Below, in pieces: positions 1 through 51,748 of a stretch of 64,000 nucleotides of DNA; positions within the stretch are counted from its first letter, which is position 1; every line of letters begins with the position of its first letter. The translations under genes and the position numbers were made by a program. The notes below the pieces were generated by a model, which ran no database searches, was not told where the DNA came from, and worked only from the letters and a program-made list of their open reading frames with translations. The stretch lies in contig CAZIMS010000009.1 of the NCBI GenBank assembly GCA_964540515.1, positions 28,391 to 92,390 of the forward strand. Direction: 5' to 3'. Source of the DNA: an uncultured Pseudomonadota bacterium. Lineage in GTDB: Bacteria; CALINM01.

Positions 1-40
1 TCCAAAAGGTTCCATCCCTTCTTATACATTTTATAGACAT
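1..40 (-). CDS. 5' end of an unidentified gene running off the window (N-terminus MSIKCIRRDGTFW...)
   Basis: ATG at 40..38 (minus) with AGGAGG about 5 nt upstream, immediately after the nifI2 stop; only 13 codons visible. Confidence 0.3.
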   Translation of the reverse strand, partial: MSIKCIRRDGTFW

Positions 41-52
41 ATTTACCTCCTT

Positions 53-469
53 TTATACAACTGCTATCTTACCCTTTTCTCCAGTTCTTATACGAACTAC
101 ATCTTCTATCGGCATAACAAATATCTTACCATCTCCTGCCTTTCCTGTCTTATTAACATCAATAATTGTTTTTATAACTTCCTTAACTTTTTCATCATCT
201 ACAACTATAAATAGCATTTTTTTGGGAACGTAAAGAGCTGGTTTTGGCAGAGAATGTTCTAATGCGTAGGTTGAAGGGGTAGGTACTACCTTAATATTTC
301 CTGGGAAACAGTCGGAAAGCTCAGTATCTACAGTTTCCACAAGAGAGCCCCTCTGCTTACCTCTTCCCTCAACACTTTGCAAGGTCATTGAAGGAACACC
401 TATGTTTTCTAAGGCTCTTTTAGTAAGCTCCACCTTATCTCTTCTGATTATTGCGCATATCTCTTTCAT
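53..469 (-). CDS. nifI2: PII-family nitrogen regulatory protein, NifI2-like (138 aa, extended loop)
   Basis: GlnB/PII-like sequence (GRGKQRG..., C-terminal GDGKIFV...IRTGEKG); 4-nt overlap with the upstream PII gene; embedded in nif operon. Confidence 0.7.
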   Translation of the reverse strand: MKEICAIIRRDKVELTKRALENIGVPSMTLQSVEGRGKQRGSLVETVDTELSDCFPGNIKVVPTPSTYALEHSLPKPALYVPKKMLFIVVDDEKVKEVIKTIIDVNKTGKAGDGKIFVMPIEDVVRIRTGEKGKIAVV

Positions 470-783
470 AGCCCCTCCTCACCTGTACGGATAGTATAGG
501 CTGTCTCAACAGGACTAACAAAAACCTTACCATCACCAATAAATCCAGTTCTTGCCTTCTCCATAATGATATTAATTACCCTATCTACGTCTTTGTCCTC
601 AACAACCATCATAATTTGTAATTTAGGTAGCTCATCATAGTGAATTGGTCCTACCTGCAGTCCCTTCTGCTTTCCTCTACCAAAGACAGCCATCTTTGTC
701 AATGCTGGAAATCCTGCACCTTCTAAGGCAAGTACAACTTCCTGTTCTTTTTCTGGTCTTACAAAAGCCCTAATCATCTTCAT
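466..783 (-). CDS. nifI1: PII-family nitrogen regulatory protein, NifI1-like (105 aa)
   Basis: Classic PII motifs (FGRGKQKG, GDGKVFV, IRTGEEG); nif operon context. Confidence 0.75.
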   Translation of the reverse strand: MKMIRAFVRPEKEQEVVLALEGAGFPALTKMAVFGRGKQKGLQVGPIHYDELPKLQIMMVVEDKDVDRVINIIMEKARTGFIGDGKVFVSPVETAYTIRTGEEGL

Positions 784-799
784 CTTTAATTCCTCCTTT

Positions 800-1186
800 T
801 TATTTTGATTTTTCTAACCATGGTATAGACTTACTTTTTATTGTTTCTAACAATTTGCCAAGGTGATCAACAATTTTGTCATTTTCTTTAGCTTTTACTG
901 GCATTATCCCTCTTCTTGCAAGACGAGCAGCAGAAGGTCCTCCTATCTCGGTTATGTAAATTACCTTACAATCAGAGAGCTTACTTACCTTTGCTTCTAC
1001 AGCATCATCGTGTTCTGCCCCCATACCTCTGGTGCTTTCTACTTTTTCGTCTCTACCATCTCCAAAAAAACGGGACTCTAAGAACTTGTAACCTTCCTTC
1101 GTAACCTCATATATATCAAACCTTCCACATCGACCAAAATGCTCATTCGCATAGGTTCCATCTGTTGTTGCAAAAGCTACTTTCAT
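800..1186 (-). CDS. nifX: NifX/NafY-family dinitrogenase FeMo-cofactor binding protein
   Basis: MKVAFATTDG...HFGRC...FDIYEV N-terminus typical of the NifX/NifB C-domain family; overlaps nifEN stop by 4 nt. Confidence 0.7.
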   Translation of the reverse strand: MKVAFATTDGTYANEHFGRCGRFDIYEVTKEGYKFLESRFFGDGRDEKVESTRGMGAEHDDAVEAKVSKLSDCKVIYITEIGGPSAARLARRGIMPVKAKENDKIVDHLGKLLETIKSKSIPWLEKSK

Positions 1187-3765
1187 AATTCACCTCCTAA
1201 TATTTTATTTACAATTTCCCTCAAAAGGTTTATGCTCCCCTTATAACCAATAGTTGTTCTCTGGGCATGACCAAAATCACTATAAGAGGGATAGCCGTAT
1301 TGGAGTAAGGGTATGTTAAATTTTTTAGCTAAATGTCTTGCTCTTGAGTTTGAGATCCAGATGTCTGCATGGATATCTAAATCTGTTAAATCTCCAACAA
1401 TAACCTCCTCAGCACAAATTGAATGCTTACCTAAACTATCATTTGGTATCACACACTTTGTAACTTTCATCCCGCATTCTGTGAGAAATCTTGAAAACTG
1501 TATAGCCTGATCACTTTCAAGAGCCATGCTTGCCTTTTTACCGGAGATATGAAACTGGGCATCCTTTAGGAGATCTAAAAAAATCTTTCTTTCTCTTTCT
1601 ACCCTTTGGTTTGTCTTCTTTTTCGAAAGTAGTTGGAGAATATTTAAAAAATTCTCAGTACCAGATAGCCCAGTGATGTTATCTAATAATGTGTATCCTA
1701 TACCTGTTAGTTCCTTTAATTTTTTTCCGACACCTTCAAGGCTTAAACCAACAACTATGCTCCATTTGTTATCCCTAATTGATAAAATATCTTTTAAAGA
1801 TGTTCCTCCACAGGTAAGTCCACTAAAGGATTCTCTGCTTCCATCAAGACATCCTAAATCAGGGATCATCAATGGATAAAGGCCAAAGTCTTCTAATATG
1901 TACCTTATTTCATTAAAATCAGCAGGAGTTAAGTGAGAACCAAGAATCACATTAATTTTATTCTCACTCTTATTTTTTGGTATATCAAGTTGCTCATTAG
2001 TTGATAGTGTAATTAATGATTCAATAGCCTTTGCATAGCCTTCTTCTAATCCACCTTCATAGTCTGGTGTAGCTACGGTTACAATCTTTGTCTTATTGTC
2101 TAACGTTCTTACAGCACTTTCTAATAGGGCTCCTCTTACCTCAGAAAGGCTACTTGAGAGGACGGAGATTAGTTCGGGCTTCTGTTTATTAATAACATCA
2201 GAGATTGTTTCTTCTAAACGTTCTTCGCTACCTAAAATTACCTCTTCAGAAAAGAGTTTTGTGGTGTTTATTACTATTGGTTCGCAAAAATGTCTAATTA
2301 GCATAACCTTGCTTAAAAAACTACAACCCTGCGCTCCATGTATAATAGGTACTGTTTTATCTATTCCCTGAAAGGCTAAAGCTGCCCCAAGAGTAGAGGG
2401 TAGCTTAAAGGGGTCTTCGCTATAAGATTTTTTGTTATTCACTATCTTTGGAACTGGGAAGATAAAATTTTTTTTGAGATTACCATAAAACAATAAGGCC
2501 TTTGTAATATCATCAGCTAAGTTGAAAAAGCCTTTTATCCCTGCGTATTTTTTATCCCTTTCTTGATTAACATCAACGAAGGGGATATTTTCTTTTATTG
2601 CTAAGTATTTGTTTCTTCCGCCAGCAATGAGCATCTCTGCCTTTGTCTCGTTAAGAAGCCTTCTTATAGAGGAGGCATCGGAAGATTCTGTAACAATTGC
2701 ATCATTTCTTAAAAGCTCTTTTGCTTTTTTTTCATCTTCATAGCTCGACTTCTTAGTTATTAAAGCTGATACCTCAATACCCATATCTCTCAAGGCCGAT
2801 ATTAGAGACCAGCTCTTCAAACCACCAGAATATAAAACAGCCTTTTTCCCCTTAAGTATTTCATAATCCTTAAGCCCTTCCTCAACCTTTGACCTTAAAT
2901 CTCCAATTGCTGAGTCAACGTTTTTCTCAAAGGTAGGGTTATTAAACTTTTTTGCTATAGTTCGTAGACTCTTAGTTATCTCTGTTGGACCATAAAAGGA
3001 TACATCTACATAATCTATGTTATATTTACTTTCCATTGCCTCAGCAACATTAATAAGAGCTCTGCCGCAGAAAAGCAAGTTTAGCCTTGCTCTGTGGGCA
3101 TATCTTATCTCATCAAAGCTTGCTTTTCCGGTAATACGAGATAGCACCTTAAGCCCTACAGATGTTAAAATATCTTCTATCTCATCCATATCTCCTGCAA
3201 TATTGTATTCCCCTATGATATTTACATAGTCATCCGTTGGATGGGATGGCTCCTTTGTACCAATCACATATCTTAATAAGGCATCCCCTGCAATTCTATT
3301 ACCTAAATTTTTTGGACCAACAAATCCAGGAGCGATAACAGGCACAACTGTTTTCCCTAACCTTTTTGTAATATCAGAACAGACAGATTCAATATCTTCT
3401 CCGGTCAGTCCTGAGATACAGGTTGCATAAACAAAAACTCCAGAGGGGTTGTGTTTTTTTATCACTTCGGTTATGGCTTCTTTTAGCTTTTCTATACCAC
3501 CATAGACAATATCAAGCTCATTCATATCTGTAGTTAGTCCTTTGCAAAGAAAAGGTCCTTTGTCAGATCTTGCACCTCTGCCATCCCATGAGTAACTGCA
3601 ACAGGTTATGGGACCATGAATTATATGGGCTGCATCAGCTATGGGCTGTAAAACTATTAATGCTCCGTCTAAGGCACAGGACTCTCCACCACGGGAACGG
3701 CAAATCTTATGGTTTCCTTTTGATTCACAACTGTTGCTAAAGAGTGTCTCGTTGGCTAAGGTCAT
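1183..3765 (-). CDS. nifEN: Fused NifE-NifN nitrogenase cofactor biosynthesis scaffold (860 aa)
   Basis: N-terminal half NifE-like (HGPITCCSYSWDGRG), C-terminal half NifN-like (IIHGAQGCSFLSKVMLIRHFCEPI); single uninterrupted ORF. Confidence 0.85.
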   Translation of the reverse strand: MTLANETLFSNSCESKGNHKICRSRGGESCALDGALIVLQPIADAAHIIHGPITCCSYSWDGRGARSDKGPFLCKGLTTDMNELDIVYGGIEKLKEAITEVIKKHNPSGVFVYATCISGLTGEDIESVCSDITKRLGKTVVPVIAPGFVGPKNLGNRIAGDALLRYVIGTKEPSHPTDDYVNIIGEYNIAGDMDEIEDILTSVGLKVLSRITGKASFDEIRYAHRARLNLLFCGRALINVAEAMESKYNIDYVDVSFYGPTEITKSLRTIAKKFNNPTFEKNVDSAIGDLRSKVEEGLKDYEILKGKKAVLYSGGLKSWSLISALRDMGIEVSALITKKSSYEDEKKAKELLRNDAIVTESSDASSIRRLLNETKAEMLIAGGRNKYLAIKENIPFVDVNQERDKKYAGIKGFFNLADDITKALLFYGNLKKNFIFPVPKIVNNKKSYSEDPFKLPSTLGAALAFQGIDKTVPIIHGAQGCSFLSKVMLIRHFCEPIVINTTKLFSEEVILGSEERLEETISDVINKQKPELISVLSSSLSEVRGALLESAVRTLDNKTKIVTVATPDYEGGLEEGYAKAIESLITLSTNEQLDIPKNKSENKINVILGSHLTPADFNEIRYILEDFGLYPLMIPDLGCLDGSRESFSGLTCGGTSLKDILSIRDNKWSIVVGLSLEGVGKKLKELTGIGYTLLDNITGLSGTENFLNILQLLSKKKTNQRVERERKIFLDLLKDAQFHISGKKASMALESDQAIQFSRFLTECGMKVTKCVIPNDSLGKHSICAEEVIVGDLTDLDIHADIWISNSRARHLAKKFNIPLLQYGYPSYSDFGHAQRTTIGYKGSINLLREIVNKILGGEL

Positions 3766-3775
3766 TAATAGCTCC

Positions 3776-4510
3776 TTAAGGTAGATTAAAGCCAGTGCTT
3801 GTTAAAATGTTTTTACCCTCTTGAGACATCAAAAAATCTATATACTTCTGAGCCATTTCTTTATTTTTTGAGTCCTTTATAATTGCGATGGCAAAAACTA
3901 TGGGTGAATGGGAGTTAGTATCTACTTTAAGCAAAAGATTTAGTTTATTTCTATTTTGATAAAACTCACTCATATATAAAAAAGCAGCTTCAACTTCTCC
4001 TCTCACTATGTAATCTGCAGCCTGTCTTACGTTCTCTACATATATTATTTTTTCAAGGAGTTCTTTTTTTAGGTTGTAATGATTCAACACTTCATCGGTA
4101 TATCTTCCTAAAGGAGATGTCTTTGGATTTGGGACAGCAATTTTTCTAAAGTTGGCCAGCTCTTTTATTGATTCCATAGGTTTTATGTTTTTGTTACCAG
4201 CTATAACAAGAGAGTTTTTCGCAAAGACCTTTGAGACATTCTTTTCTACTCTTCCAGTTTTTATGAGTTCTTCAATCTCCTTTAAGCCTGCGGAAGCAAA
4301 AATGTCTACTGGAGCACCTTTATCTATCTGAGTCTTTAAACTTCCTGACGGACCAAAGTGAAAATTAATCTTCATACCATAGATAGATTCAAATCTTTTA
4401 CCTATCAACAAGAAAGTGTCTTTAAGAGCGGTAGCCGAAGAGATATACATATCAGATGCAAGTACAAGGGAAGGCGTAAAAAATATTATAAATATCAGAG
4501 AAAAAATCAT
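3776..4510 (-). CDS. modA: Molybdate (possibly tungstate) ABC transporter periplasmic substrate-binding protein
   Basis: Signal peptide followed by ModA-like motifs (FGPSGSLKTQIDKGAPVDIFASAG); adjacent permease and ATPase. Confidence 0.75.
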   Translation of the reverse strand: MIFSLIFIIFFTPSLVLASDMYISSATALKDTFLLIGKRFESIYGMKINFHFGPSGSLKTQIDKGAPVDIFASAGLKEIEELIKTGRVEKNVSKVFAKNSLVIAGNKNIKPMESIKELANFRKIAVPNPKTSPLGRYTDEVLNHYNLKKELLEKIIYVENVRQAADYIVRGEVEAAFLYMSEFYQNRNKLNLLLKVDTNSHSPIVFAIAIIKDSKNKEMAQKYIDFLMSQEGKNILTSTGFNLP

Positions 4511-5238
4511 ATCCTGCCACCTGTGATTAATAATTCCGACTTTTTAAGTGGCATCTCAAGGGCTTCAAGATTATCAATTAGGCTTTCCTCAAAATCATAC
4601 TTGTGACTCAAATGTTTTATAGATCCCATGGAATAAAAAATAATTTTGTCAGACATAAATATAGCCTCTGACATGTCATGGGTTACAAGAACAACTGGTA
4701 TGTTTAAACATCTCTTTATCTCTAATACAAGCTCTCTCATATTACTTTTTAATTTGCTATCAAGCATGCTAAAGGGCTCATCAAGAAGAAGTAGAGATGG
4801 TTCACCAATTATTGCCCTTGCCAAAGCCACCCTTTGCTTCTGTCCTCCTGATAATTCATGGGGGTAATGGTTTTCATAGCCAAAAAGCCCCATTTTGTTA
4901 ATAAGGCTTTGAACTTTTTTTTCATCCTTTTCTTTCCTTATACCATACTCAATGTTTTGTCTTACTGTCATATGGGGGAAAAGTGATAGATTTTGACTTA
5001 CATAACCTATCTTTCTTTTTTGGGGAGGGATGTTTATCTTTTTTTCTGAATCGAAAAAGATGGTATCTTCGCAAATAATTTTACCAGAATCAGGTTTAAC
5101 AAAGCCTGCTATCATATTAATAGTTGACGTTTTTCCAGCACCTGAGGGACCAAAAAGTACTACTAACTCATTACCGATCTCCCAAGATATATTGATCTCG
5201 AATTTTAACATACGCTTCTTTATGTCTATTTTTAGCAT
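4507..5238 (-). CDS. modC: ABC transporter ATP-binding protein (molybdate ModC-like, no TOBE domain)
   Basis: Walker A GPSGAGKTS, signature LSGGQKQR, Walker B LLLDEP. Confidence 0.75.
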   Translation of the reverse strand: MLKIDIKKRMLKFEINISWEIGNELVVLFGPSGAGKTSTINMIAGFVKPDSGKIICEDTIFFDSEKKINIPPQKRKIGYVSQNLSLFPHMTVRQNIEYGIRKEKDEKKVQSLINKMGLFGYENHYPHELSGGQKQRVALARAIIGEPSLLLLDEPFSMLDSKLKSNMRELVLEIKRCLNIPVVLVTHDMSEAIFMSDKIIFYSMGSIKHLSHKYDFEESLIDNLEALEMPLKKSELLITGGRI

Positions 5239-5918
5239 GGTCTTACGCTCCTTTCGGAGAGTTTAAGAGACAAGAGAACAGCAATTATGCTAAAGAGACT
5301 ATAGAAAGCAACAATCAAGTTTGCTCTGTCCCACTCTCCACTAACCACTAATGAGTAAATCATAATTGGCATAGTTTCTGTCTTGCCCGGTATATTTCCT
5401 GCGAAGATTAGTGTTGCCCCAAACTCGCCGAGAGCCCTCACAAAGGAGATTATGAAACCTGTTAAAAATCCTTTCCTTATAAGTGGAAAAATAATTTTGA
5501 AAAAAGTCTCTCCCTCTGAGTGACCAAGAGAGTATGAAGTCTTGATAATATTTTCATCAATAGATTCAATAGCTGTCCTAACTGTCTTAACCATAAGTGG
5601 TAGAGAAACCACATAAGCGGCAATAACTGCTGCCTGCCATGTAAACATTAAGTTTAACCCTGTCCATCTATAGATATAAGAACCGATTATACCGTTTTTG
5701 CCTAATAGTATGATTAGGTAAAATCCAACAATTGTAGGTGGCATCACCATAGGCAGTGTTAACAATGAATCAATTAAGTTTTTGCCAAAGAAGTTTTTTC
5801 GTGCGAGGATATAGGCAAGTGCTGTACCTGTTATAGCCACAAATAGAGTTGATATAGTAGCTACTCTAAGTGATAGAAAGAAAGCGGTTAGAATATCCTC
5901 ATCCATATAAAACTCCAT
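5232..5918 (-). CDS. modB: ABC transporter permease (molybdate ModB-like)
   Basis: Multi-pass membrane protein with the inner-membrane-component EAA-like loop (LGEFGATLIFAGNIPGKTET). Confidence 0.8.
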   Translation of the reverse strand: MEFYMDEDILTAFFLSLRVATISTLFVAITGTALAYILARKNFFGKNLIDSLLTLPMVMPPTIVGFYLIILLGKNGIIGSYIYRWTGLNLMFTWQAAVIAAYVVSLPLMVKTVRTAIESIDENIIKTSYSLGHSEGETFFKIIFPLIRKGFLTGFIISFVRALGEFGATLIFAGNIPGKTETMPIMIYSLVVSGEWDRANLIVAFYSLFSIIAVLLSLKLSERSVRPC

Positions 5919-5921
5919 AGC

Positions 5922-6815
5922 TCATAGGTTTTCACAATACTCTATCCCAAAAAGGGCATTAAGAGCCTCATACTCAATATCTTTGTCTTCTCCAAGCTTT
6001 CCAAAGGCATCAGATCTACATTTGGTACAATGGGACATTTGAGGCATGTACTTTTGTGCTGCTGAACGGGCAATATATATATCATGACAGCTCGGTTTTA
6101 CAATTTGGCTCATCTCTCCTTGAGGGATTAGGCCAATAATATTTTGTGTGTAAGCTCCGCAGGAAGATACAAATTGGGATATTTCCTCAACCTCACTGCT
6201 ATTTATACCTGGCATAAGTACCGTGTTTATCTTGACCAAACATCCCTTAGATACAGCCTTTATTAACCCCTCTTTCTGGCTTGCTACTATTAGTTCTGCT
6301 GCTTCTTCTTGGGAGTAAGTTTTATTATTTTTTATAGCAAAGGAGTATATTTTGTTAGCAGTGGAAGGGCGAAGAGTGTTAATAGTGATTGTGATGCTAT
6401 CAACCCCAGCATCAACCAACTCATCTAACTTCTCGGGAAGGAGAAGTCCGTTAGTGGAGACGCAAAGAACCATGTCGCAGAACTCTTTTTTTACTGATCT
6501 GAAAAATTCAAATGTTTCTTCATTGGCTAAAGCATCTCCCGGACCTGCTACGCCAATTACACGTAAAGTACTATCTCTTTCTGCAAGCAACCTCAACCTA
6601 AATAGTGCTTCATCAACAGTTAAAACCCTTGATGTCACACCAGGGCGAGACTCATTAACACAGTCGTATTTACGTACACAATACCGACACTTAATATTAC
6701 ATTTTGGGGCGATTGGTATATGAATCCTGCTAAATTTGTTATGGGCTTCTGCAGACAAGCAGGGGTGAGATAATGCTATTTTTTTTGATTTCAATGAAGA
6801 AACATTTGATTTCAT
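5922..6815 (-). CDS. nifB: Nitrogenase cofactor biosynthesis radical-SAM protein NifB (core domain only, no NifX-like C-terminal domain)
   Basis: Radical SAM CxxxCxxC (CNIKCRYC), NifB-like flanking sequence, 297 aa. Confidence 0.88.
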   Translation of the reverse strand: MKSNVSSLKSKKIALSHPCLSAEAHNKFSRIHIPIAPKCNIKCRYCVRKYDCVNESRPGVTSRVLTVDEALFRLRLLAERDSTLRVIGVAGPGDALANEETFEFFRSVKKEFCDMVLCVSTNGLLLPEKLDELVDAGVDSITITINTLRPSTANKIYSFAIKNNKTYSQEEAAELIVASQKEGLIKAVSKGCLVKINTVLMPGINSSEVEEISQFVSSCGAYTQNIIGLIPQGEMSQIVKPSCHDIYIARSAAQKYMPQMSHCTKCRSDAFGKLGEDKDIEYEALNALFGIEYCENL

Positions 6816-6825
6816 TTTATACCCC

Positions 6826-8334
6826 CTATCTTATTAAGTCAAAATTTGGACCATCTATGGACTGTCTATCTAACTCTTCCAGTATGGTATTGACAACCTG
6901 AATTAGGAAATTGAGAGTGCCTTGATAACCAATTATTGGTATTCTGTGGAGATGATGTCTATCTTGAATGGGAAACCCAACCCTTACAAGAGGCGTTTTA
7001 GTGTCTCTCCAAAGAAATTTTGCCTGTGAGGGTCCAAAGATAAGGTCGCAGGGCTGTTCAAAAAGGGCTGAACGAAGATGCCACATATCTTTACCTGCGT
7101 ATACATTGCAACCTTTACCAAAGGAACTTTTTTCTAGTAGCTCCTTAGCTTTTAGCTCAAAATCTTTGCCACCATTGGTGCAAAGAATATGAAGAGGATA
7201 CATACCCACTTCTAAGCAAAAACTAATAAGCCCCAAGACAATATCAGGATCGCCTATTATTGCTACCTTTTTCCCGTGTAGGTATGACTGAGAATCTATT
7301 AAGGCATCGAGTAATCTTCCCCTCTCCATTTCTAACTCTTCAGGGATTTGTAACCCCATAATTTTGGAAAGAGTCTCAAGTATATAATCCGTATTCTTCA
7401 CGCCTATTGGGTAGGGCAAAGAGATTGTCTCCTGTAGCCATTCACTTTTTATGTGTTCCATGGTTTTTTCTGTGGAAAAGTGCATTAGTGAGATAGTCGT
7501 CTTTGAGTTTATAGCGTCAAAGAGATCAGCAAGTTTTGTCCCGCCTGTATATAGATTGTACTCACCGGTTAGAGGAGAATCAAAGGAATCACTTGTATCC
7601 CCTAAAACTATGTGTGATATTTTCATTAAGTCTAATATCCGTTTTATCTCCCTAATATTTGCAGGATATGTCTCAAAACCGGTTATAACGTTTATGCGAT
7701 TCTTAGGCATATCCTTTTGTTTAACAATGCTTAAGATACCCTTCATCATATTGTCATAACCAACTATATGGGAACCAACAAAGCTTGGTGTATGAGCAAA
7801 GGGTATTAAGATATCTTGAGGTATTTTATTTTTCTCCCGTGCTGTCCTAATAAAGGCATTCAGGTCATCGCCAATAACCTCAGCCATACAGGTGGTTGAG
7901 ACAGCAATCATTTGAGGCTTGTAAAGGGCATAGGCATTTTCTAAACCTTCTAACATATTGGAAAGACCACCATAAACGGCTGCATCCTCTGTCATAGATG
8001 TGGACACAGCTGGAACAGGCTCTTTATAATGTCTGCTAAAATAGGATCTAAAATAGGCAACACAGCCTTGGGAACCATGAACAAAAGGTAGAGTTTTCTC
8101 AAACCCTAAAGCAGCATAGACAGCACCAAGAGGTTGACAGGCCTTTGATGGGTTAATCGTAACTGCCTGTCTCGCAAAATTTTTCTCTTTATATTCAGCG
8201 CCTTTTGTCCATTCTTTTACTCGCTCAACCTCTTCGTTAGAGCAAGGTGCCTCAAAGGCCTTTTTCTCTTCAAATTGTTTAATATACTCTTCTTCTTTAA
8301 ATAATTGGTTATGGTCTTTGACAGTTGTTTTCAT
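6826..8334 (-). CDS. nifK: Nitrogenase MoFe protein beta chain
   Basis: NifK-like sequence with P-cluster cysteine region ([12 protein letters not shown]); overlaps nifD by 4 nt. Confidence 0.93.
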
Positions 8335-9758
8335 TTTTTCCTCCTAATCAAATTCCACATGGGGCTATTAATTGCCATATCCATGTCTCTTGCAAAGACA
8401 GCAAACCCATCTACTCCATGATAGGGACCCGAATAATCCCAAGAGTGCATCTGTCTAAAGGGCACGCCCATTTTATGGAAAGCATATTTTTCCTTTACAC
8501 CTGAACCAATAAGGTCAGGTCTCAACACCTTTGTAAACTCTTCTAACTCGTATGGAGTTGCATCATCGTATATGATAGTACCCTCTTTAAGTTCGGGATA
8601 TGTTCTTTTATAATCATCGTTATGAGCGAACTCATAGCCAGTTCCAATTACCTCCATACCAAGATCTTCATAAGCCCCTATAGGATGTCGAGGCCTTAAG
8701 CCGCCCACATAAAGCATGACTCTCTTACCTTCTAATCTTGGTCTGTATTCCTCTATGACAGCATCAGTAATTTTTTTGTAATCCTCTATAGCCCTCTCTG
8801 TTTTCTCTTTTACCCTGTCATCAAAAAAGGAGGCAATTTTTCTCATACTCTCGTAAATCTTTGTGGGACCAAAAAAGTTAAACTCTACCCATGGAATACC
8901 AAAATTTTCTTCCATAAATCTGCAAATGTAGTTCATAGATCTATAACAATGGATAAGGTTAATCTTTGCTTTGGAGGCAATACGCATCTCGTTTAGACTT
9001 GCATCTCCTGTCCACTGAGCAATTACTCTTAATCCCATATCTTCCAGTATCTTTCTTGATGCCCAGGCATCACCGCCAATATTATAATCACCTATAATAT
9101 TTACATCATAAGGGGTTGATTTAGAGAAATCACCACCCTTTCCTAACACATAATCTCTTATAGCATCATTAGCGATATGGTGACCCAAAGATTGGGAGAT
9201 ACCTCTAAACCCTTCACATCTTACTGGAACTATAGGGATACCCAACTCTTTACTCATCTTTCTACAAACTGACTCAATATCATCACCTATTAAACCAACA
9301 GGACATTCAGACTGGATTGATATACCCTTTGCAAGAGGGAATAGCTCTTTTAACTCTCTTAAGATCTGTTCAAGCTTTTTATCTCCACCAAAAACTATAT
9401 CCTTTTCTTGATAATCACTGGTAATGTGGACAGTTCCAAAATTGTCTATACCACTAATTCCATTAGAATAGTTTCTTCTGGACCACCAGCTATACTGACC
9501 GCAACCAATAGGACCATGACTTATATGAAGCATGTCCTTCACGGGTCCCCATACAACGCCCTTAGAACCAGCGTAGGCACAACCTCTAATTGTCATAACG
9601 CCAGGACGTGATTTAACATTGCTTTTTACCTGACAGGTGGAACAAGTTCCGGTAGGGTCGTTTGGTTTGATATGCAAAGCCCTTTCCTTCCTCGTTTTCT
9701 CAGGATATATGGATAGGACTTCGTCTATAATTTTTTGTGTCCTTTCAATATTACTCAT
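8331..9758 (-). CDS. nifD: Nitrogenase MoFe protein alpha chain
   Basis: NifD-like sequence ([31 protein letters not shown]). Confidence 0.93.
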
Positions 9759-9782
9759 AGTCTCTTTTCCTCCTTTTATTTA

Positions 9783-10649
<867 letters not shown>

Positions 10650-10655
10650 TTATTG

Positions 10656-10671
10656 AGCATCAATCGTGCCA
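10656..10671 (-). promoter_or_regulatory. Sigma-54 (RpoN) -24/-12 promoter element upstream of nifH
   Basis: Minus-strand reading TGGCACGATTGATGCT matches TGGCACG-N4-TTGCW with correct GG/GC spacing; about 35 nt upstream of nifH ATG. Confidence 0.55.
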
Positions 10672-10724
10672 TTCAATATCTTATTGAAAAAATTGAAAAA
10701 TTAAATTTTAAGGAGAAGATTTTT

Positions 10725-10749
10725 TTACAAATTTGTAACATCTATTACA
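10725..10749. promoter_or_regulatory. Candidate enhancer/UAS: perfect palindrome TTACAAATTTGTAA overlapping a TGT-N10-ACA motif
   Basis: TGTAACATCTATTACA (10734..10749) fits the NifA-type TGT-N10-ACA spacing, about 65-80 bp upstream of the -24 element; short AT-rich motifs can arise by chance. Confidence 0.3.
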
Positions 10750-11127
10750 TTTTTGTGGTTAAAACTATTCTGTATTGGGCTTAAAGACAATAGGACTTAA
10801 TAAAATGATTAAACTCCTAATAATTAAATGCCCTATCAATGAATATGGAGCTTTAATTAAAAAAAGCTTTTTAAAAGAGGAAGGATTATAGGAAAAGTTT
10901 AAAGCTCTTACTAAATCTGACTTAGTCTTTCCGATTTAATAAGAAAAATTAAGTTGCCATCATTATTTAGTATCTTACTTTCTCTAAATGACTGTATAGA
11001 AATTTTTTACGAAGTGAAAAAGAAAGCCTGAAATTATTAAATGTAAAAATATAGAATATCTCAACACTGAAGGGCTTTTTATAGAAGGATGGGAATTCAG
11101 TAAGAACTAATTAGAAGGGAGGAAAAG

Positions 11128-12452
11128 ATGATGAAAAAATTGGTAGTTTCGGTAGTGTTCTTTGCTGTCTTTATGATGTGTGGTAATGCTTTTTCAGCAG
11201 GTTTTGCTCTTATTGAGCAGAGTGTTAGTGGGTTAGGTAATGCCTATGCAGGTGGAGCAGCTCAAGCAGAGGATGCAACAACAATCTTTTATAATCCAGC
11301 AGGTATGACGAGGCTAAATGATCAGTTTATAGCAGGCCTACATTTTATCTCACCCAGTGCAAAGTTTAAAGATAATGGTTCTTCAAGACTCAATCCTTTA
11401 ATAGGGTCTCTTGGAACCAATAATGGTGGTGATGGGGGTGTTAATGCACTTGTTCCTAATATATTTTAAAAAAGATTAGCGACAAGGGAGCCTTTGGTTT
11501 GGGTGTCAATGTTCCCTTTGGTCTCGGCACTGAGTACCCCAGTGATTGGATAGGTAGATATCACGCAATAAAATCAGATATGATGACTTTAAACATAAAT
11601 CCATCCTTTGCCTATAAGGTTACTGACAAATTTAGTAAAGGTACAGGTGTAAGTGTTCAATATATAAAGGCAGAGCTTTCAAGTGCTGTTGATCAAAAGT
11701 TAATTTTAGCCTCGCAGGGAGCACCAGCTGGTGTTTGGGGAGCTGCTTCTGATTCATATTCCTCAATGGAAGGTGATGGATGGGGATATGGATATAATTT
11801 GGGTTTATTATATGAACTTTCCAAGGATACAAGGTTTGGTTTAGCCTATCGTTCAAGAGTTCAACAGTCCTTAGAGGGTGATATAAAGTTTTCAAATGTT
11901 CATACTCTTCTCTCACCAAGTCCAAACTTCCAAAATCGTTCAATTAAGGCCGATGTAGATTTACCCGATACAGTATCAGCCTCCTTTTATTCTAAAATAA
12001 CAGCCAAACTGGCCCTTATGGCAGACGTTACTTGGACTAAGTGGAGTAGGTTTAAAGAACTTAGGGTAAAAAGTACAAATGGTGCCTCTGATATTCTCAC
12101 AACAGAAAATTGGGATGATAATTATAGATACTCTTTAGGTTTAAGTTATTATGCTGATAATAAATCCACCTTCAGATTTGGTGTTGCCTATGATGAGACA
12201 CCTGTTCCAAGTCCTCAATATAGAACACCAAGAATACCAGATGGTAGTAGGAAGTGGATAGCTGCTGGTTTTGGCCATAAATTTTCAGAAAAAATTTCCT
12301 TTGATTTAGGAGCTGCCTATCTCTTTGTAAATGACCCAAAAATAAATCAGATTGCAACTCCGACTAACGAAAATGCAGTTAGAGGCAATTTAATAGGTAC
12401 CTATGACTGCAATGTGAAGATATTGAGTGCTCAAGTTAATTATAACTTCTAA
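11128..12452 (+). pseudogene. FadL/OmpP1-family outer-membrane transporter, interrupted by a frameshift near 11457..11475
   Basis: ORFs 11128..11469 (frame 1) and 11499..12452 (frame 3) are contiguous parts of one FadL-like protein; break sits in a T4/A6 homopolymer run. Confidence 0.6.
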
Positions 12453-45545: not shown

Positions 45546-47807
45546 CTACACAAAAATATCTTCTCTTTTAATATTGTATTTTCTCATCAGATTATGAAAA
45601 GTTGGTCTTGGTATTCCTGCAAGCTCTGCGGCCTTTTTTACATTTCCCATAGTTTGTTTGAGATATTTCTTAAGTAAGTTTCTTTCAAAAATGGCCAGTT
45701 GTTCTTCTCTCTGTTCCCATAAATTCTTATTGGAATTAATAAAGTTAACTTCTGGTGTTATAGATTGTATGTGGATAGGAAAATCTTTTAGTTTTAGCTC
45801 ATCTCCTTGGGCAAGAATTATTGCTCTTTCTACAACATTAGCAAGCTCTCTTATGTTTCCAGGCCAATCGTAGGCCTTTAGGTGCTTTATAATCTCTTTC
45901 TCGTAAGATATTATCTTCTTACCTAACTTTTTTGAGTTGGTCTCTATAAGATAGTGTAGAAAATATGGCAGGTCTTCCTTTCTATCTCTCAAAGGGGGTA
46001 GATGAATACTAAATACATTCAACCTATAATATAAATCTTCTCTAAATTTTCCTTCTTCTATGAGCTGTTCTAAGTTTCTGTTTGTTGCAGCAATGACTCT
46101 GGCATCTATCTTCTTAACTTCGTTACTACCTACCGGTCTAATCTCGCCGTTTTGAAGAACTCTTAATAACTTTGTCTGAAGATTAATGGGCATATCTCCT
46201 ATCTCATCAAGAAATATTGTACCATTATGTGCTACTTCAAATAATCCTTTTTTATTTTCCAAGGCTCCGGTAAAAGCACCTTTTACATGACCAAAAAGCT
46301 CACTTTCTAATAAATTTTCTGTTAAGGTAGTACAATTAACAGTTATCATAGGTCTATCATTTCGGGACGATTTCTGATGTATAAGTGTTGCTACCATCTC
46401 TTTACCGGTTCCACTTTCACCTCTAAGTAGTACTATAGCATTAGTGTGGGCAACTTTTTCAATTTGTTCCCAGATCTCTCTCATTTTGTGTGTTTTACCA
46501 AGTATAAAGCTAAACTCTTTATCTTTATATAGTTCTTTTTGAATTATCTTGTAATCATTTAAAAGATTAATATTGTTGACTGAAATCTTGTTTAACAAGT
46601 AAGGAAGACACATTTCTATCTCAGCTAAACCCATAACTACTGCTCGTGCCTTCTCATAACAGTTGTCATAACCACAGGCACCACAATTTAAGTTTTCACC
46701 ACCATTGTATGTCTTCATCTCATCTAAAATGCTCTTAATATCTTCTTCTTTTGGCTCCACAAAGATTAGTCTGTCTTTAGGAGAAAAAGTCTTCTCAAGG
46801 CCTATCTTAGGTATTACCTTCTCTTCATTCTCCCCTTGAAAATAATAATCTTTAATATATCTTTTTACCCTTTCTGCCCTCTCATAAATTGTTCCTCTAT
46901 CTTTCATCATTGGACCATCTATACAACCCTTGCAAAAAAGTATGTCTACAAATCTTGGGTTAATCTCGTTTTTTTTGAGAGAATGGAGGAAACTTAGGAC
47001 CTCATCTTTTCCATCAATCACAAGAATATCACTATCAAGAATGTCTGTTCCTATTGAAGCAGTTTTTAGAAGTCCGCCTGAAAGTGCAAATGCCCTGCCA
47101 ATTCGTGGAAAATATCCATCAAAATCTGAAAAACTTTTTCTTTTTGGGTTTATATCTCTTATAATAAACTCTTCGTCAAGCTCTTTGAAAGTTAATACTG
47201 AATCAATTGCGTAACCATCATCTTTTATCTCGCTTTTTTTTGCTATACAAGGCCCAATAAAAAAAACAAGAGCTTTATCAATCTTTTCTTTAATTAACCT
47301 TCCCATGGCAATCATAGGTGATGCGATGGGTATTAGATTATTAATTAGCTCTGGATAGAACTTAGCTATTAAATTTACTATAGCAGGACAGGGAGATGAG
47401 ATATAGGTCTTTTTTTCCGTTGTCTTAGCATTAATATTAATAATAAACTCTTTGTATTTATCAATTATAATCTCAGCACCATAGGCAGCTTCATACACAT
47501 AATTAAATCCTAATTTTCTTAGGGCAGAAACTACTTGAAGAGGGTGTACATCTTGGTAATAAGAGACAAATGAAGGGGCAAGGAGGGCAACTGTTTTTTT
47601 ATTCTTCTTCAGCGCCTCTTCTATTGTTAGACCATTTTGTATTTCTTTAGCTTCCTGTGAACAGACTTTTAAACAGTTGCCACAGACTATGCAGTTTTCT
47701 TGAATTACATAAGCTTGTTCGTTGTAAACCTTTATAGCTTTAACTGGGCATCCTCTAATACAGGAATAACATTTTTTACAAAGGCCCTCTTTTGTCTGTA
47801 TAATCAT
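45546..47807 (-). CDS. Sigma-54-dependent transcriptional activator with N-terminal 2x[4Fe-4S] ferredoxin and [FeFe]-hydrogenase H-cluster-like domain
   Basis: Two CxxCxxCxxxC motifs; hydrogenase-like motifs [23 protein letters not shown]; AAA+ sigma-54 domain ([15 protein letters not shown]); C-terminal HTH. Confidence 0.75.
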
Positions 47808-49046: not shown

Positions 49047-50028
49047 TTATGGACCTCCTTTCGCCCTTTGAAGGGGAAATCTTTAAACCCTTTTCATATA
49101 ATATTTTTTTTATTTTCTCTATTGATAATGGTGTTTTTCCATCGTAAATTCTGTAATTTTTTCTAAGTCTCTTTGGAGTAAAGTTGGGCATAATAACATT
49201 ACAGCCACATTCAAGGGCTTCAGAAAGGGATTTTTCACCACCTAAAGTGTATAAGGCAGTTGTAGCTGGAATATTAAGATCTTCAAGAATTATTCTTGCA
49301 AAGGTTAGTATTTTAATGACAAGTTCAGTATTAGCTGCAGCGTAGTTAGAAAAAGGTGTCCCTTTAGCGGGTAGAAAAGGACCAATAGCAGCCATATCAC
49401 AATCAAGTTCTTTCATAAGAAAAATGTCTCCAATATAATCCTCTAAACTGGTATAGGGTAACCCGATAATATTACCGAGACCAACCTTATATCCAATTTT
49501 CTTTAATATTTCATAATTTTTAAGTCTATTCTTCAAAGAATCATCAGGATGTAAAGCTTTATAGGCTCTATCATTTGAGGTTTCGTGCTTGATTAAATAT
49601 CTATCAGCACCTGCATCGAAAAAGGCCTTATAATCATCATAACTACGTTCACCGATACAAAGTGTAATGGCACAGTCCATATCTTTTTTAATCTCAGATA
49701 TTATCTCAACAATAGCTTCTCGTGAATAATATAAATCTTCTCCTGACTGTAAAACTATAGTTTTTATACCTCTTTTGTATATTTTTTGAGCCGATTTTTT
49801 GATATCTTCTTTATTCATCCTGTATCTTACTATCTTGTTTGACTTTCTTATGCCACAGTATAAACAGTCTTTGCGGCAATGATTTGAAAATTCGATTATC
49901 CCCCTAAGAAAGACTTCGTTGCCATAGATTTGATTTTTTTTCTTTAGAGCTATCTCTTTATATTTATATAAATTAGTATCCATTGAAGTAATAATTTTCT
50001 TTATTTCATTTATGTTAAACATATACAT
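49036..50028 (-). CDS. hydE: [FeFe]-hydrogenase maturation radical-SAM protein HydE
   Basis: Radical SAM motif CRKDCLYC in BioB/HydE-like fold; flanked by hydG and hydF. Confidence 0.75.
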   Translation of the reverse strand: MYMFNINEIKKIITSMDTNLYKYKEIALKKKNQIYGNEVFLRGIIEFSNHCRKDCLYCGIRKSNKIVRYRMNKEDIKKSAQKIYKRGIKTIVLQSGEDLYYSREAIVEIISEIKKDMDCAITLCIGERSYDDYKAFFDAGADRYLIKHETSNDRAYKALHPDDSLKNRLKNYEILKKIGYKVGLGNIIGLPYTSLEDYIGDIFLMKELDCDMAAIGPFLPAKGTPFSNYAAANTELVIKILTFARIILEDLNIPATTALYTLGGEKSLSEALECGCNVIMPNFTPKRLRKNYRIYDGKTPLSIEKIKKILYEKGLKISPSKGERRSINVH

Positions 50029-51304
50029 CCATCTTTCCAGAAAAAACTTCCTCTATCTTATCTTTATATTTTTTTACTCTGAGCTTTTCAATTTCATTAT
50101 AAATAAAGTTATTTGCTTTAAGCCTTTTTTCTTCGTCAAAAAAATTTCTCACATACTCAGCTAAACTAAGTAATGAATTGATGTTGCAAAAATTTTTTAT
50201 CTTACCTGTTTCTGCTAACTCCAAAAAATCCTCTCCTACTCTTCCTTTTCTATAGCAGGCAGTACAAAAGCTGGGGATTAACCCGTTTTCTATAAGTGTC
50301 TCAACCATCTCAGATAAAGTCCTCTCATCGGATATACAAAACTGATTGGCATCATCTTTAGATGTATAGCCTCCTGGTGTTGTTGATGATGCAGCACTTA
50401 TCTGGGACACTCCTAAATTAAGAAGCCTATCTCTTAACTCCTTGGGCTCTCTTGTGGAAAGGATTATGCCTGTGTAGGGAACAGATATTCTTAAAACAGC
50501 AACTATATAGCTAAATAACTCATCATCAATTTTGTAGGGAGGGTTATAAGATAAGGGAGTGTTGACAGAGGGTTTAATTCTTGGAACAGAGATAGTATGC
50601 GGTCCTATAGAAAAATTGTTTTTTAGCTCTTCTATGTGTTTTAATAAGAAATATACCTCTTCATCTGGTTTAGAGAGTCCAAAGAGAACACCCATACCAA
50701 TATCTTTAATACCCGCTTCAATAGCACGAAAAGGGGCATAATATCTAAAGTCAAAATCGCTTTTTAAACCTTGGGGGTGATATATTTTATAGAGCTCTCT
50801 GTTATAGGTCTCTTGAAATAACTGATATGTTCCTATGTTTGTCTCTTTTAAGGTTTTAAAGTCATAAAGAGTGAGTGGGGCTATATTAACATTAATCCTT
50901 CTTATATTGCTACCATTATATTTTATAGAATAGATATAGCATATGCTGTCGCAGATATAGTTTAAACTGTCACTTTCTCCTGACACCAAAAGTATACGCT
51001 TAACCCCTTGCTTCAAAAGGAAAGTGGTTTCATTATATATCTCTTCTTGAGACAGTTTTTTTCTCTTTATCTCTTTATTTTCTTTTCGAAATCCGCAATA
51101 TAGACAGGAGTTAGTGCAAAAATTTGATATATATAGAGGAGAGAAAAGGACAACTCTCTTTCCATAAATCTTATTTTTTATTTTGTTTGCTAAAGAAAGG
51201 ACCTTCTGCTGTGTAACTTTATCTTTACAGTTAAGAAGCTCGTAAGCCTCTTCTGCCGATAAACCCCGATATTTTTTCGCTCTTAAAAGGATATTTGATA
51301 TCAT
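50015..51304 (-). CDS. hydG: [FeFe]-hydrogenase maturation radical-SAM tyrosine lyase HydG
   Basis: Radical SAM CTNSCLYC plus C-terminal CxxC-x22-C motif (CTACYR...NFC) that separates HydG from ThiH. Confidence 0.85.
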   Translation of the reverse strand: MISNILLRAKKYRGLSAEEAYELLNCKDKVTQQKVLSLANKIKNKIYGKRVVLFSPLYISNFCTNSCLYCGFRKENKEIKRKKLSQEEIYNETTFLLKQGVKRILLVSGESDSLNYICDSICYIYSIKYNGSNIRRINVNIAPLTLYDFKTLKETNIGTYQLFQETYNRELYKIYHPQGLKSDFDFRYYAPFRAIEAGIKDIGMGVLFGLSKPDEEVYFLLKHIEELKNNFSIGPHTISVPRIKPSVNTPLSYNPPYKIDDELFSYIVAVLRISVPYTGIILSTREPKELRDRLLNLGVSQISAASSTTPGGYTSKDDANQFCISDERTLSEMVETLIENGLIPSFCTACYRKGRVGEDFLELAETGKIKNFCNINSLLSLAEYVRNFFDEEKRLKANNFIYNEIEKLRVKKYKDKIEEVFSGKMDVYV

Positions 51305-51469
51305 AATATGTGAAAGTCAATACAATATGTAAAGAATATATTACACAAAAAGTTGTCATATTGACAATAAAAAATTAGTTTTAGTTAAAAAACAATATGA
51401 AATAGTGCCAAGATAATTTTATTAAGTTTAATCTTTTCTTTATTCCTTTGATTTATACTAAGTAGAGAT

Positions 51470-51510
51470 AAAAAAATTCCGGGAAGGGGCTTGGCTATGC
51501 CCCGTTCCCG
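51470..51510 (-). terminator. Orphan intrinsic-terminator-like element in divergent intergenic region
   Basis: GC-rich 11-bp stem (CGGGAAGGGGC / GCCCCGTTCCCG, one bulge) followed on the minus strand by a T7 run; no minus-strand coding gene upstream. Confidence 0.4.
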
Positions 51511-51748
51511 TTATAGTAGGGAGGGAAAGTATGTATATTTTTATAAGCAATATATGTGCCAATTGCAAAATTTTTTGTAGATGTTAAAAATATTATTTCT
51601 TAGTTTAAAATAATTATTGATAGCTATAAAAAATTAGATAGTTTTGTTCAGATTTACAAATAACAGCAGAGAGACTATGATTTTTATGATTTAAATTATT
51701 GTGGTTTTTTCGCTATAATAATACAAGTTATTTCACGTAGGAGGTTAG

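Follow-up and report, generated by a model that had tools for sequence, protein, structure and literature searches.

The leader of nifH in this genome raises the question of which form of RNA polymerase and which activator drive the nitrogen fixation genes: on the nifH strand it carries a candidate sigma-54 promoter element, and further upstream a motif of the type recognised by NifA. We examined these elements within the whole stretch of 64,000 nucleotides analysed here (hereafter the window; G+C content 34%) and compared them with other nifH loci. From this in silico comparison we conclude that they very probably form a promoter dependent on NifA and sigma-54, from which one long nif operon would be transcribed in an organism of the Nitrospirota that resembles Thermodesulfovibrio. 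The coordinates of all features are collected in the table.

Features of the nif and hyd regions, in coordinates of the window
Feature	Position	Strand	Remarks
Sigma-54 -24/-12 element TGGCACGATTGATGCT	10671..10656	minus (nifH)	GG 10670-10669, GC 10658-10657
Predicted transcription start	10644..10648	minus	from standard sigma-54 geometry, ~12 nt past the -12 C
Shine-Dalgarno GGAGG	10632..10628	minus	read directly; 8 nt upstream of the nifH start codon
AT-rich spacer with A/T tracts	10672..10726	minus	separates the enhancer from the -24 element
Core NifA-type upstream activator sequence (UAS) TGT-N10-ACA	10734..10749		TGTAACATCTATTACA on the plus strand, TGTAATAGATGTTACA on the nifH strand
Perfect 14-bp palindrome TTACAAATTTGTAA	10725..10738		100% self-complementary
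Composite ACA-N4-TGT-N10-ACA-N4-TGT	10727..10756		two ACA-W4-TGT 10-mers 20 bp apart around the core UAS
ACA-W4-TGT 10-mers of the composite	10727..10736 and 10747..10756
Triplets of the composite	10727-29, 10734-36, 10747-49, 10754-56		ACA, TGT, ACA, TGT
nif operon	53..10619	minus	NCBIfam/Pfam assignments and gene calls
nifH	10619..9783	minus	TIGR01287, 463 bits
nifD	9758..8331	minus
nifK	8334..6826	minus
Short nifB	6815..5922	minus	297 aa, without NifX-like C-terminal domain
modB, modC, modA	5918..3776	minus	molybdate transporter
nifE-nifN (nifEN) fusion	3765..1183	minus
nifX-like gene	1186..800	minus
Two P-II (nifI-like) genes	783..466 and 469..53	minus
Hydrogenase-domain enhancer-binding protein (EBP)	45546..47807	minus	Fer4, Fe_hyd_lg_C, Sigma54_activat, HTH_8
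hydG	51304..50015	minus
Perfect sigma-54 consensus TGGCACATATATTGCT	51561..51546	minus	~240 nt upstream of the hydG-hydE-hydF-EBP operon

An earlier reading of the letters alone (hereafter the sequence-only reading) had placed a -24/-12 element with exact spacing in the nifH leader, and this element, TGGCACGATTGATGCT, is indeed present and is kept in related nifH promoters. Its GG-N10-GC spacing is exact, 36 nt separate its end from the nifH ATG, and its -12 C lies 38 nt from the A of that codon (10619). For a search of the 64 kb window we used the consensus TGGCACN5TTGCW and allowed up to one mismatch; TGGCACGATTGATGCT has one mismatch, its -12 region reading ATGCT. The search returned three matches against 1.0 expected, and the chance of a near-consensus site falling within 100 nt of nifH was about 1 in 1000. 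The third match, TGGCAGGGCATTTGCA (47085..47100, minus strand), falls inside a coding region, that of the hydrogenase-domain protein discussed below, and is probably a chance match. Spacing, near-consensus sequence, position before a gene and conservation in orthologous promoters together mark TGGCACGATTGATGCT as a predicted sigma-54 promoter, from which a 5′ UTR of about 27 nt would be expected. No sigma-70-like promoter was scored on the nifH strand in a promoter scan of 10560..11200, no terminators were predicted in the nifH leader, and an Rfam scan of 10400..11300 gave no match. The AT-rich spacer could be a region of DNA looping or bending; by eye it holds only matches with one to two mismatches to the IHF consensus WATCAANNNNTTR, and we claim no IHF site. 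An RpoN box was not found within the window. The two enhancer-binding proteins with a GAFTGA motif described below would be indirect support for rpoN elsewhere in the genome. RpoN and 14 enhancer-binding proteins of T. yellowstonii appear in the list given in the supplement of PMC3162934.

The upstream motif required more careful analysis. The sequence-only reading had described a perfect palindrome and an overlapping TGT-N10-ACA, and both can be read directly from the sequence where it placed them; they are not, however, two separate things but parts of one 30-bp composite. The palindrome TTACAAATTTGTAA consists of the promoter-proximal ACA-N4-TGT 10-mer with two complementary base pairs added on each side, and the second such 10-mer, at 10747..10756, had been missed. 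The core UAS begins 78 nt upstream of the T of the -24 element, with its centre at about -96 from the predicted start, and on the plus strand it also matches TGT-N4-T-N5-ACA. A TGT-N10-ACA arrangement is common by chance in DNA as AT-rich as that of the window, and its spacing also fits sites of the CRP/NtcA/Rex type. In the window we counted 17 matches against 11.3 expected, which is not significant alone. Since the motif is not rare, its presence upstream of nifH would by itself prove nothing. The 30-nt composite, by comparison, has a single exact match in the window, at nifH, where we estimate from base composition that about 0.008 would be expected; no second copy that might point to other NifA targets was found there.

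We therefore turned to the upstream DNA of 160 nifH loci, 80 from species-representative genomes and 80 from metagenomes (L-numbers below), and measured all offsets from the T of TGGCAC. Loci were treated as close relatives when Nitrospirota-like with a NifH at least 80% identical to that of the window (n = 40), and as distant when NifH identity was below 80%, the latter being mostly proteobacterial. The nearest NifH relatives, at 82-87% identity, belong to Nitrospirota/Thermodesulfovibrionales MAGs, indicating that the organism is Thermodesulfovibrio-like. No relative above 87% NifH identity was found in the genome and metagenome contig collections. At this distance alignment of the upstream regions failed, and they were compared by motif and position only. 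Despite unalignable flanking sequence, a sigma-54 element lies within 130 nt of the nifH ATG in 33 of the 40 close relatives, and in most Nitrospirota-like relatives the equivalent element stands 47-77 nt before the ATG. Thirteen of these 33 promoters have a TGT-N10-ACA that precedes the -24 element by 60-115 nt, where 0.24 would be expected from the remainder of the same loci (binomial P ∼7e-20, without correction for shared ancestry). Measured from the -24 T, the clade sites have offsets of 68, 78-81 (the mode; 78 in the window), 90-92, 101 and 109-111 nt, and these values are spaced by roughly whole turns of the helix (Rayleigh R = 0.78 at 10.5 bp, p ∼6e-5, likewise uncorrected for ancestry). 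Those at -78..-81 come from L005, L016, L019, L083, L089, L092, L095 and L097. With both elements conserved in position among related promoters, chance occurrence was rejected.

The flanking triplets set the clade apart. Both are present at 9 of 14 clade sites but at none of 44 sites in the distant loci, where 37 of the 44 TGT-N10-ACA sites are instead found at -110..-116; a TG at positions 7-8 of the N10 spacer is frequent in clade and distant sites alike. The exact composite occurs 10 times in the 1.61 Mb of fetched loci: nine copies precede a nifH start by 133-178 nt, and one stands upstream of nifB. In the latter case (L083) it precedes a separate nifB, whose product has the N-terminus HPCFSKEAHHTFGRIHLPV, at an offset of -81 from the sigma-54 element AGGCATCCATCTTGCT. 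A similar module lies at -79 from TGGCACGCCTGTTGCT before nifB of L092, with AGT instead of TGT as the outermost triplet. That the module recurs before both nifH and nifB makes it a regulon signature rather than a peculiarity of one intergenic region. In L083 (20574..20676) and L092 (10475..10580) nifB appears as a separate transcription unit with its own enhancer and sigma-54 element, and in L083 13 nt separate the enhancer from the start codon of a divergently oriented P-type (heavy-metal) ATPase gene.

Some further arrangements were observed among the relatives. In L097 (∼3980..4190) two TGT-N10-ACA sites 32 bp apart occupy the region that separates nifH from a divergent gene. Both genes have a sigma-54 element of their own, at offsets of -79/-111 and -67/-99, and a single enhancer apparently serves the two divergent promoters. 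Upstream, on the opposite strand, lies a nifA (46% identity). The nifH upstream regions of L001, L008, L021 and L091 read TTGTT rather than TTGC at -12 (for example TGGTACGGATCTTGTT), with GT replacing the canonical GC at this conserved position; these may be weakened sigma-54 promoters.

The site in the window is also a perfect GTA-N8-TAC, as in NtcA-like sites, and a TAAAAT hexamer follows 24 nt downstream of it. These features would suit a CRP/FNR/NtcA- or Rex-type operator (TGTA-N8-TACA) of a sigma-70 promoter, the -24/-12 element then being coincidental. We regard this as extremely improbable. In the orthologous promoters only TGT and ACA are kept, not GTA and TAC; the sigma-54 element is conserved, with the motif at a phased distance from it; the scan of the nifH strand gave no sigma-70-like promoter; and the N24 gap to TAAAAT, the nearest TAN3T, departs from the canonical N22. 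On these same grounds (GTA/TAC conservation, promoter type and spacing) the site was not assigned to the NtcA/CRP class II promoters. NrdR boxes were also considered and rejected, since both the spacing and the gene are wrong.

Each 10-mer is kept as a unit around an A/T core, and it might be proposed that these flanking ACA-W4-TGT sequences are the real recognition units, bound by NifA in a different mode or by a second protein (a co-activator, repressor or architectural factor), with the central TGT-N10-ACA a mere by-product of their spacing. The restriction of paired flanks to clade sites (9/14 versus 0/44) would agree with this, as would the retention of both 10-mers with N12 between them in L091 and N9 in L087 and L093, variants that fit a strict TGT-N10-ACA dimer site poorly. 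Against it, N10 is by far the commonest spacing between the 10-mers, in L095 and L097 the TGT-N10-ACA at -79 lacks complete flanks, and the recognition helix of NifA (see below) is conserved with that of proteobacterial NifAs whose nifH promoters have plain TGT-N10-ACA. Half-sites placed 7 bp apart, centre to centre, would moreover be unusual for dimers with a Fis-type helix-turn-helix. We consider it unlikely that the 10-mers are the true recognition units, and give only slightly more room to the general possibility that an alternative recognition mode or a second protein operates at the enhancer.

A NifA-type site calls for a cognate activator, and the sequence-only reading had proposed searching the genome for nifA. 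A look-up with the terminal P-II protein of the operon recovered contig L082, which is 100.000% identical to window positions 1..10161 and runs beyond position 1; a look-up with NifH gave another identical contig, which begins just 20 nt upstream of nifH. Beyond the window the operon continues, on L082, into a gene for a 91-aa ferredoxin and then, after a 27-nt gap and in line with the nif genes, into a full-length nifA (10122..11990 for the two genes, 10425..11990 for nifA), which begins ∼265 nt past window position 1 and is the next-to-last gene on the contig. The 521-aa product scores 578.9 bits against the NifA equivalog model TIGR01817 (cutoff 528.85) over residues 16-515, and has GAF, Sigma54_activat and HTH_8 domains and a GAFTGA motif. 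Its Fis-type helix-turn-helix carries the NifA signature AKAAR-LG-T-RQ--Y and agrees with that of NifAs encoded in the other loci, and its recognition helix, AKAARMLGITQRQLGYKI, is close to AKAARLLGMTPRQIAYRI in NifAs of distant, probably proteobacterial loci. Redox-sensing rhizobial NifAs have a Cys-rich linker; the L082 protein contains a single cysteine, which makes the rhizobial type of redox sensing unlikely. Among the relatives, L089 has a nifA of 66% identity whose end lies directly in front of the composite and nifH, and a 63% identical one is found 2.8 kb upstream of nifH in L093. Judged by sequence, by helix-phased position and by the presence of a cognate NifA, the core site of the window can be assigned as a putative NifA upstream activator sequence.

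Intergenic gaps within the operon are 0-27 nt, and we detected no internal sigma-54 sites or terminators above chance; from these two observations nifA is probably co-transcribed with nifH, which would give positive feedback. A basal nifA promoter may exist as well; a sigma-70-like match (9/12) directly in front of nifA does not exceed chance. The layout of the operon is unusual, with nifB and modBCA inserted between nifK and the fused nifEN, and with the nifI-like P-II genes at the 3′ end of the operon rather than between nifH and nifD.

A different activator had been singled out by the sequence-only reading, which named the hydrogenase-domain protein at 45546..47807 as the only sigma-54 activator in the window. 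This is literally true but misleading, with nifA lying only ∼265 nt outside. The protein is the sole enhancer-binding protein inside the window and carries a GAFTGA motif, and a coupling of nitrogenase to H2 metabolism would be physiologically plausible; one could thus imagine that it activates the nifH promoter and ties nif expression to H2 or redox state. Its sensor region comprises two 4Fe-4S motifs, an FeS domain and the large-subunit (H-cluster) domain of an [FeFe]-hydrogenase. However, it reaches only 343 bits against TIGR01817, below the 528.85 cutoff, and solely through AAA+ residues 429-682. The N-terminus consists of Fer4 and Fe_hyd_lg_C with no GAF domain, the helix-turn-helix is without the NifA signature, and on this comparison the protein falls outside the NifA family. 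It is encoded as the last gene of the hydG-hydE-hydF operon, right after the H-cluster maturases HydG, HydE and HydF, and this operon has its own perfect sigma-54 promoter, TGGCACATATATTGCT, at which the composite motif was not found. With a true NifA encoded in the nif operon itself, the hydrogenase-domain protein is not needed to explain nif expression, and we hold its control of nifH to be most improbable. It may act as a sigma-54 activator that senses H2 or redox state. In the hyd leader (window 51465..51561) we observed a strong GC hairpin followed by a U7 tract, ∼30-70 nt past the predicted start (-21.7 kcal/mol, z = -2.8). The arrangement resembles an attenuated leader or a short RNA transcribed from the sigma-54 promoter, and had no convincing match in Rfam.

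Activator usage does vary within the phylum. Some Nitrospirota MAG loci (L010, L011, L084-L088) retain a sigma-54 nifH promoter without TGT-N10-ACA, and in two of these, L010 and L011, an NtrC-type activator is encoded directly upstream of nifH. Their conserved -24/-12 element, a feature shared with the window, stands 52-57 nt before the nifH ATG; the composite is absent. An NtrC-type response regulator, which seems to serve in some other Nitrospirota, might by analogy with these suggested NtrC-dependent promoters activate nifH here too. The window motif is nevertheless NifA-type rather than NtrC-type, nifA is in the operon, and the composite and an adjacent nifA occur together in L089. We judge such a role for an NtrC-type protein in the window to be highly unlikely.

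The sequence-only reading had argued for enhancer-dependent nif transcription, and the positional conservation of both elements at nifH and nifB promoters, together with a bona fide nifA in the operon, favours that view. Under the NifA/sigma-54 explanation, sigma-54 RNA polymerase would sit on 10671..10656 as a closed complex, while NifA would bind the TGT-N10-ACA enhancer centred at ∼-96. Looping out the AT-rich spacer, NifA would contact the closed complex and open it using ATP. Transcription would proceed from ∼10645 through nifHDK, nifB, modBCA, nifEN, nifX and nifI1I2, and read-through beyond the window into the ferredoxin gene and nifA would allow the promoter to amplify its own activator. 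The two flanking half-sites would most likely help further NifA dimers to assemble into the active oligomer. The nitrogen signal would probably be P-II or 2-oxoglutarate acting on the GAF domain of NifA.

A more specific proposal is that the nif enhancer of this clade, instead of the classic single TGT-N10-ACA, is a fixed 30-bp two-palindrome module placed ∼79 nt (± whole turns) from the -24 element and coupled to nifA feedback; we find this rather doubtful. If true, the 30-bp module would imply another kind of NifA-DNA assembly, for example three dimers on one full and two half-sites, or possibly a second protein sharing the enhancer. A nifA placed as the operon-terminal regulator would, in that case, make an all-or-none positive feedback switch in a thermophilic anaerobe.

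We used Klebsiella-type loci (L149, L151-L153, L157) as a positive control, taking TGGTATGTTCCCTGCA to be the Klebsiella nifH promoter and TGTTCTGTTTCCCACA to be its NifA site; by the same measure their UAS was located at -111/-112. The window shares with Klebsiella pneumoniae/oxytoca a GG-N10-GC element near nifH, an upstream TGT-N10-ACA on a fixed helical face, and an activator built of GAF, AAA+ (GAFTGA) and HTH_8. It differs in that its UAS lies 78 nt from the -24 T instead of 111-112, about three helical turns closer, and in having the extra ACA-N4 and N4-TGT flanks. Its -12 region reads ATGCT where Klebsiella has CTGCA, and no IHF site was identified in its spacer. Its nifA forms the 3′ end of the nifH operon and has no nifL beside it on L082, in contrast to the separate nifLA operon of Klebsiella. 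The nifH promoters of other beta- and gammaproteobacteria (Gallionella, Azoarcus, Thiodiazotropha) likewise have in common with the window a sigma-54 element and a single TGT-N10-ACA, but in 37 of the 44 sites of the distant loci the offset is tightly fixed at -110..-116, and none of the 44 has both flanking half-sites.

Closer to the organism studied here, Parro and Moreno-Paz reportedly described a nif regulon with nifA in Leptospirillum ferrooxidans. We found no published nif promoter analyses for Thermodesulfovibrio or Leptospirillum in the accessible literature. A nifA homolog downstream of the nif cluster has been noted in diazotrophic Thermodesulfovibrio (PMC12501866). Thermodesulfovibrio sp. 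TK110 and T. yellowstonii share with our operon this nifA homolog by the nif cluster, the nifEN fusion and nifI, but the gene order nifHDK-nifB-modBCA-nifEN-nifX-nifI-nifI-fdx-nifA found here differs from the published nifHDKENXIIB (PMC12501866). Nitrogenase activity of T. yellowstonii was demonstrated by acetylene reduction, and it was not until 2025 that such activity was shown for thermophilic sulfate reducers of the Thermodesulfovibrio type (PMC12501866).

The comparisons support the view that the window promoter belongs to a known kind of system not previously described in this lineage, with a clade-specific enhancer geometry, namely a site at ∼-79 rather than ∼-113 plus flanking half-sites; beyond this geometry the predicted regulation is that of the textbook. 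They provide a concrete, testable map of promoter and enhancer for the nitrogen fixation genes of thermophilic sulfate reducers of the Thermodesulfovibrio type and would extend the NifA/sigma-54 paradigm to a deep-branching anaerobic lineage. They also remove the tempting but unsupported idea of a hydrogenase-like activator controlling nif. The enhancer signature, which already picks out nifB promoters, should be usable to predict NifA regulons in Nitrospirota MAGs.

On the other side of the nifH leader, the divergent gene for a FadL-type outer-membrane transporter is split into two plus-strand open reading frames (11128..11469 and 11499..12452), matching model positions 9-89 and 126-414. It could be a pseudogene, or the split could reflect a sequencing error or an in-frame stop.
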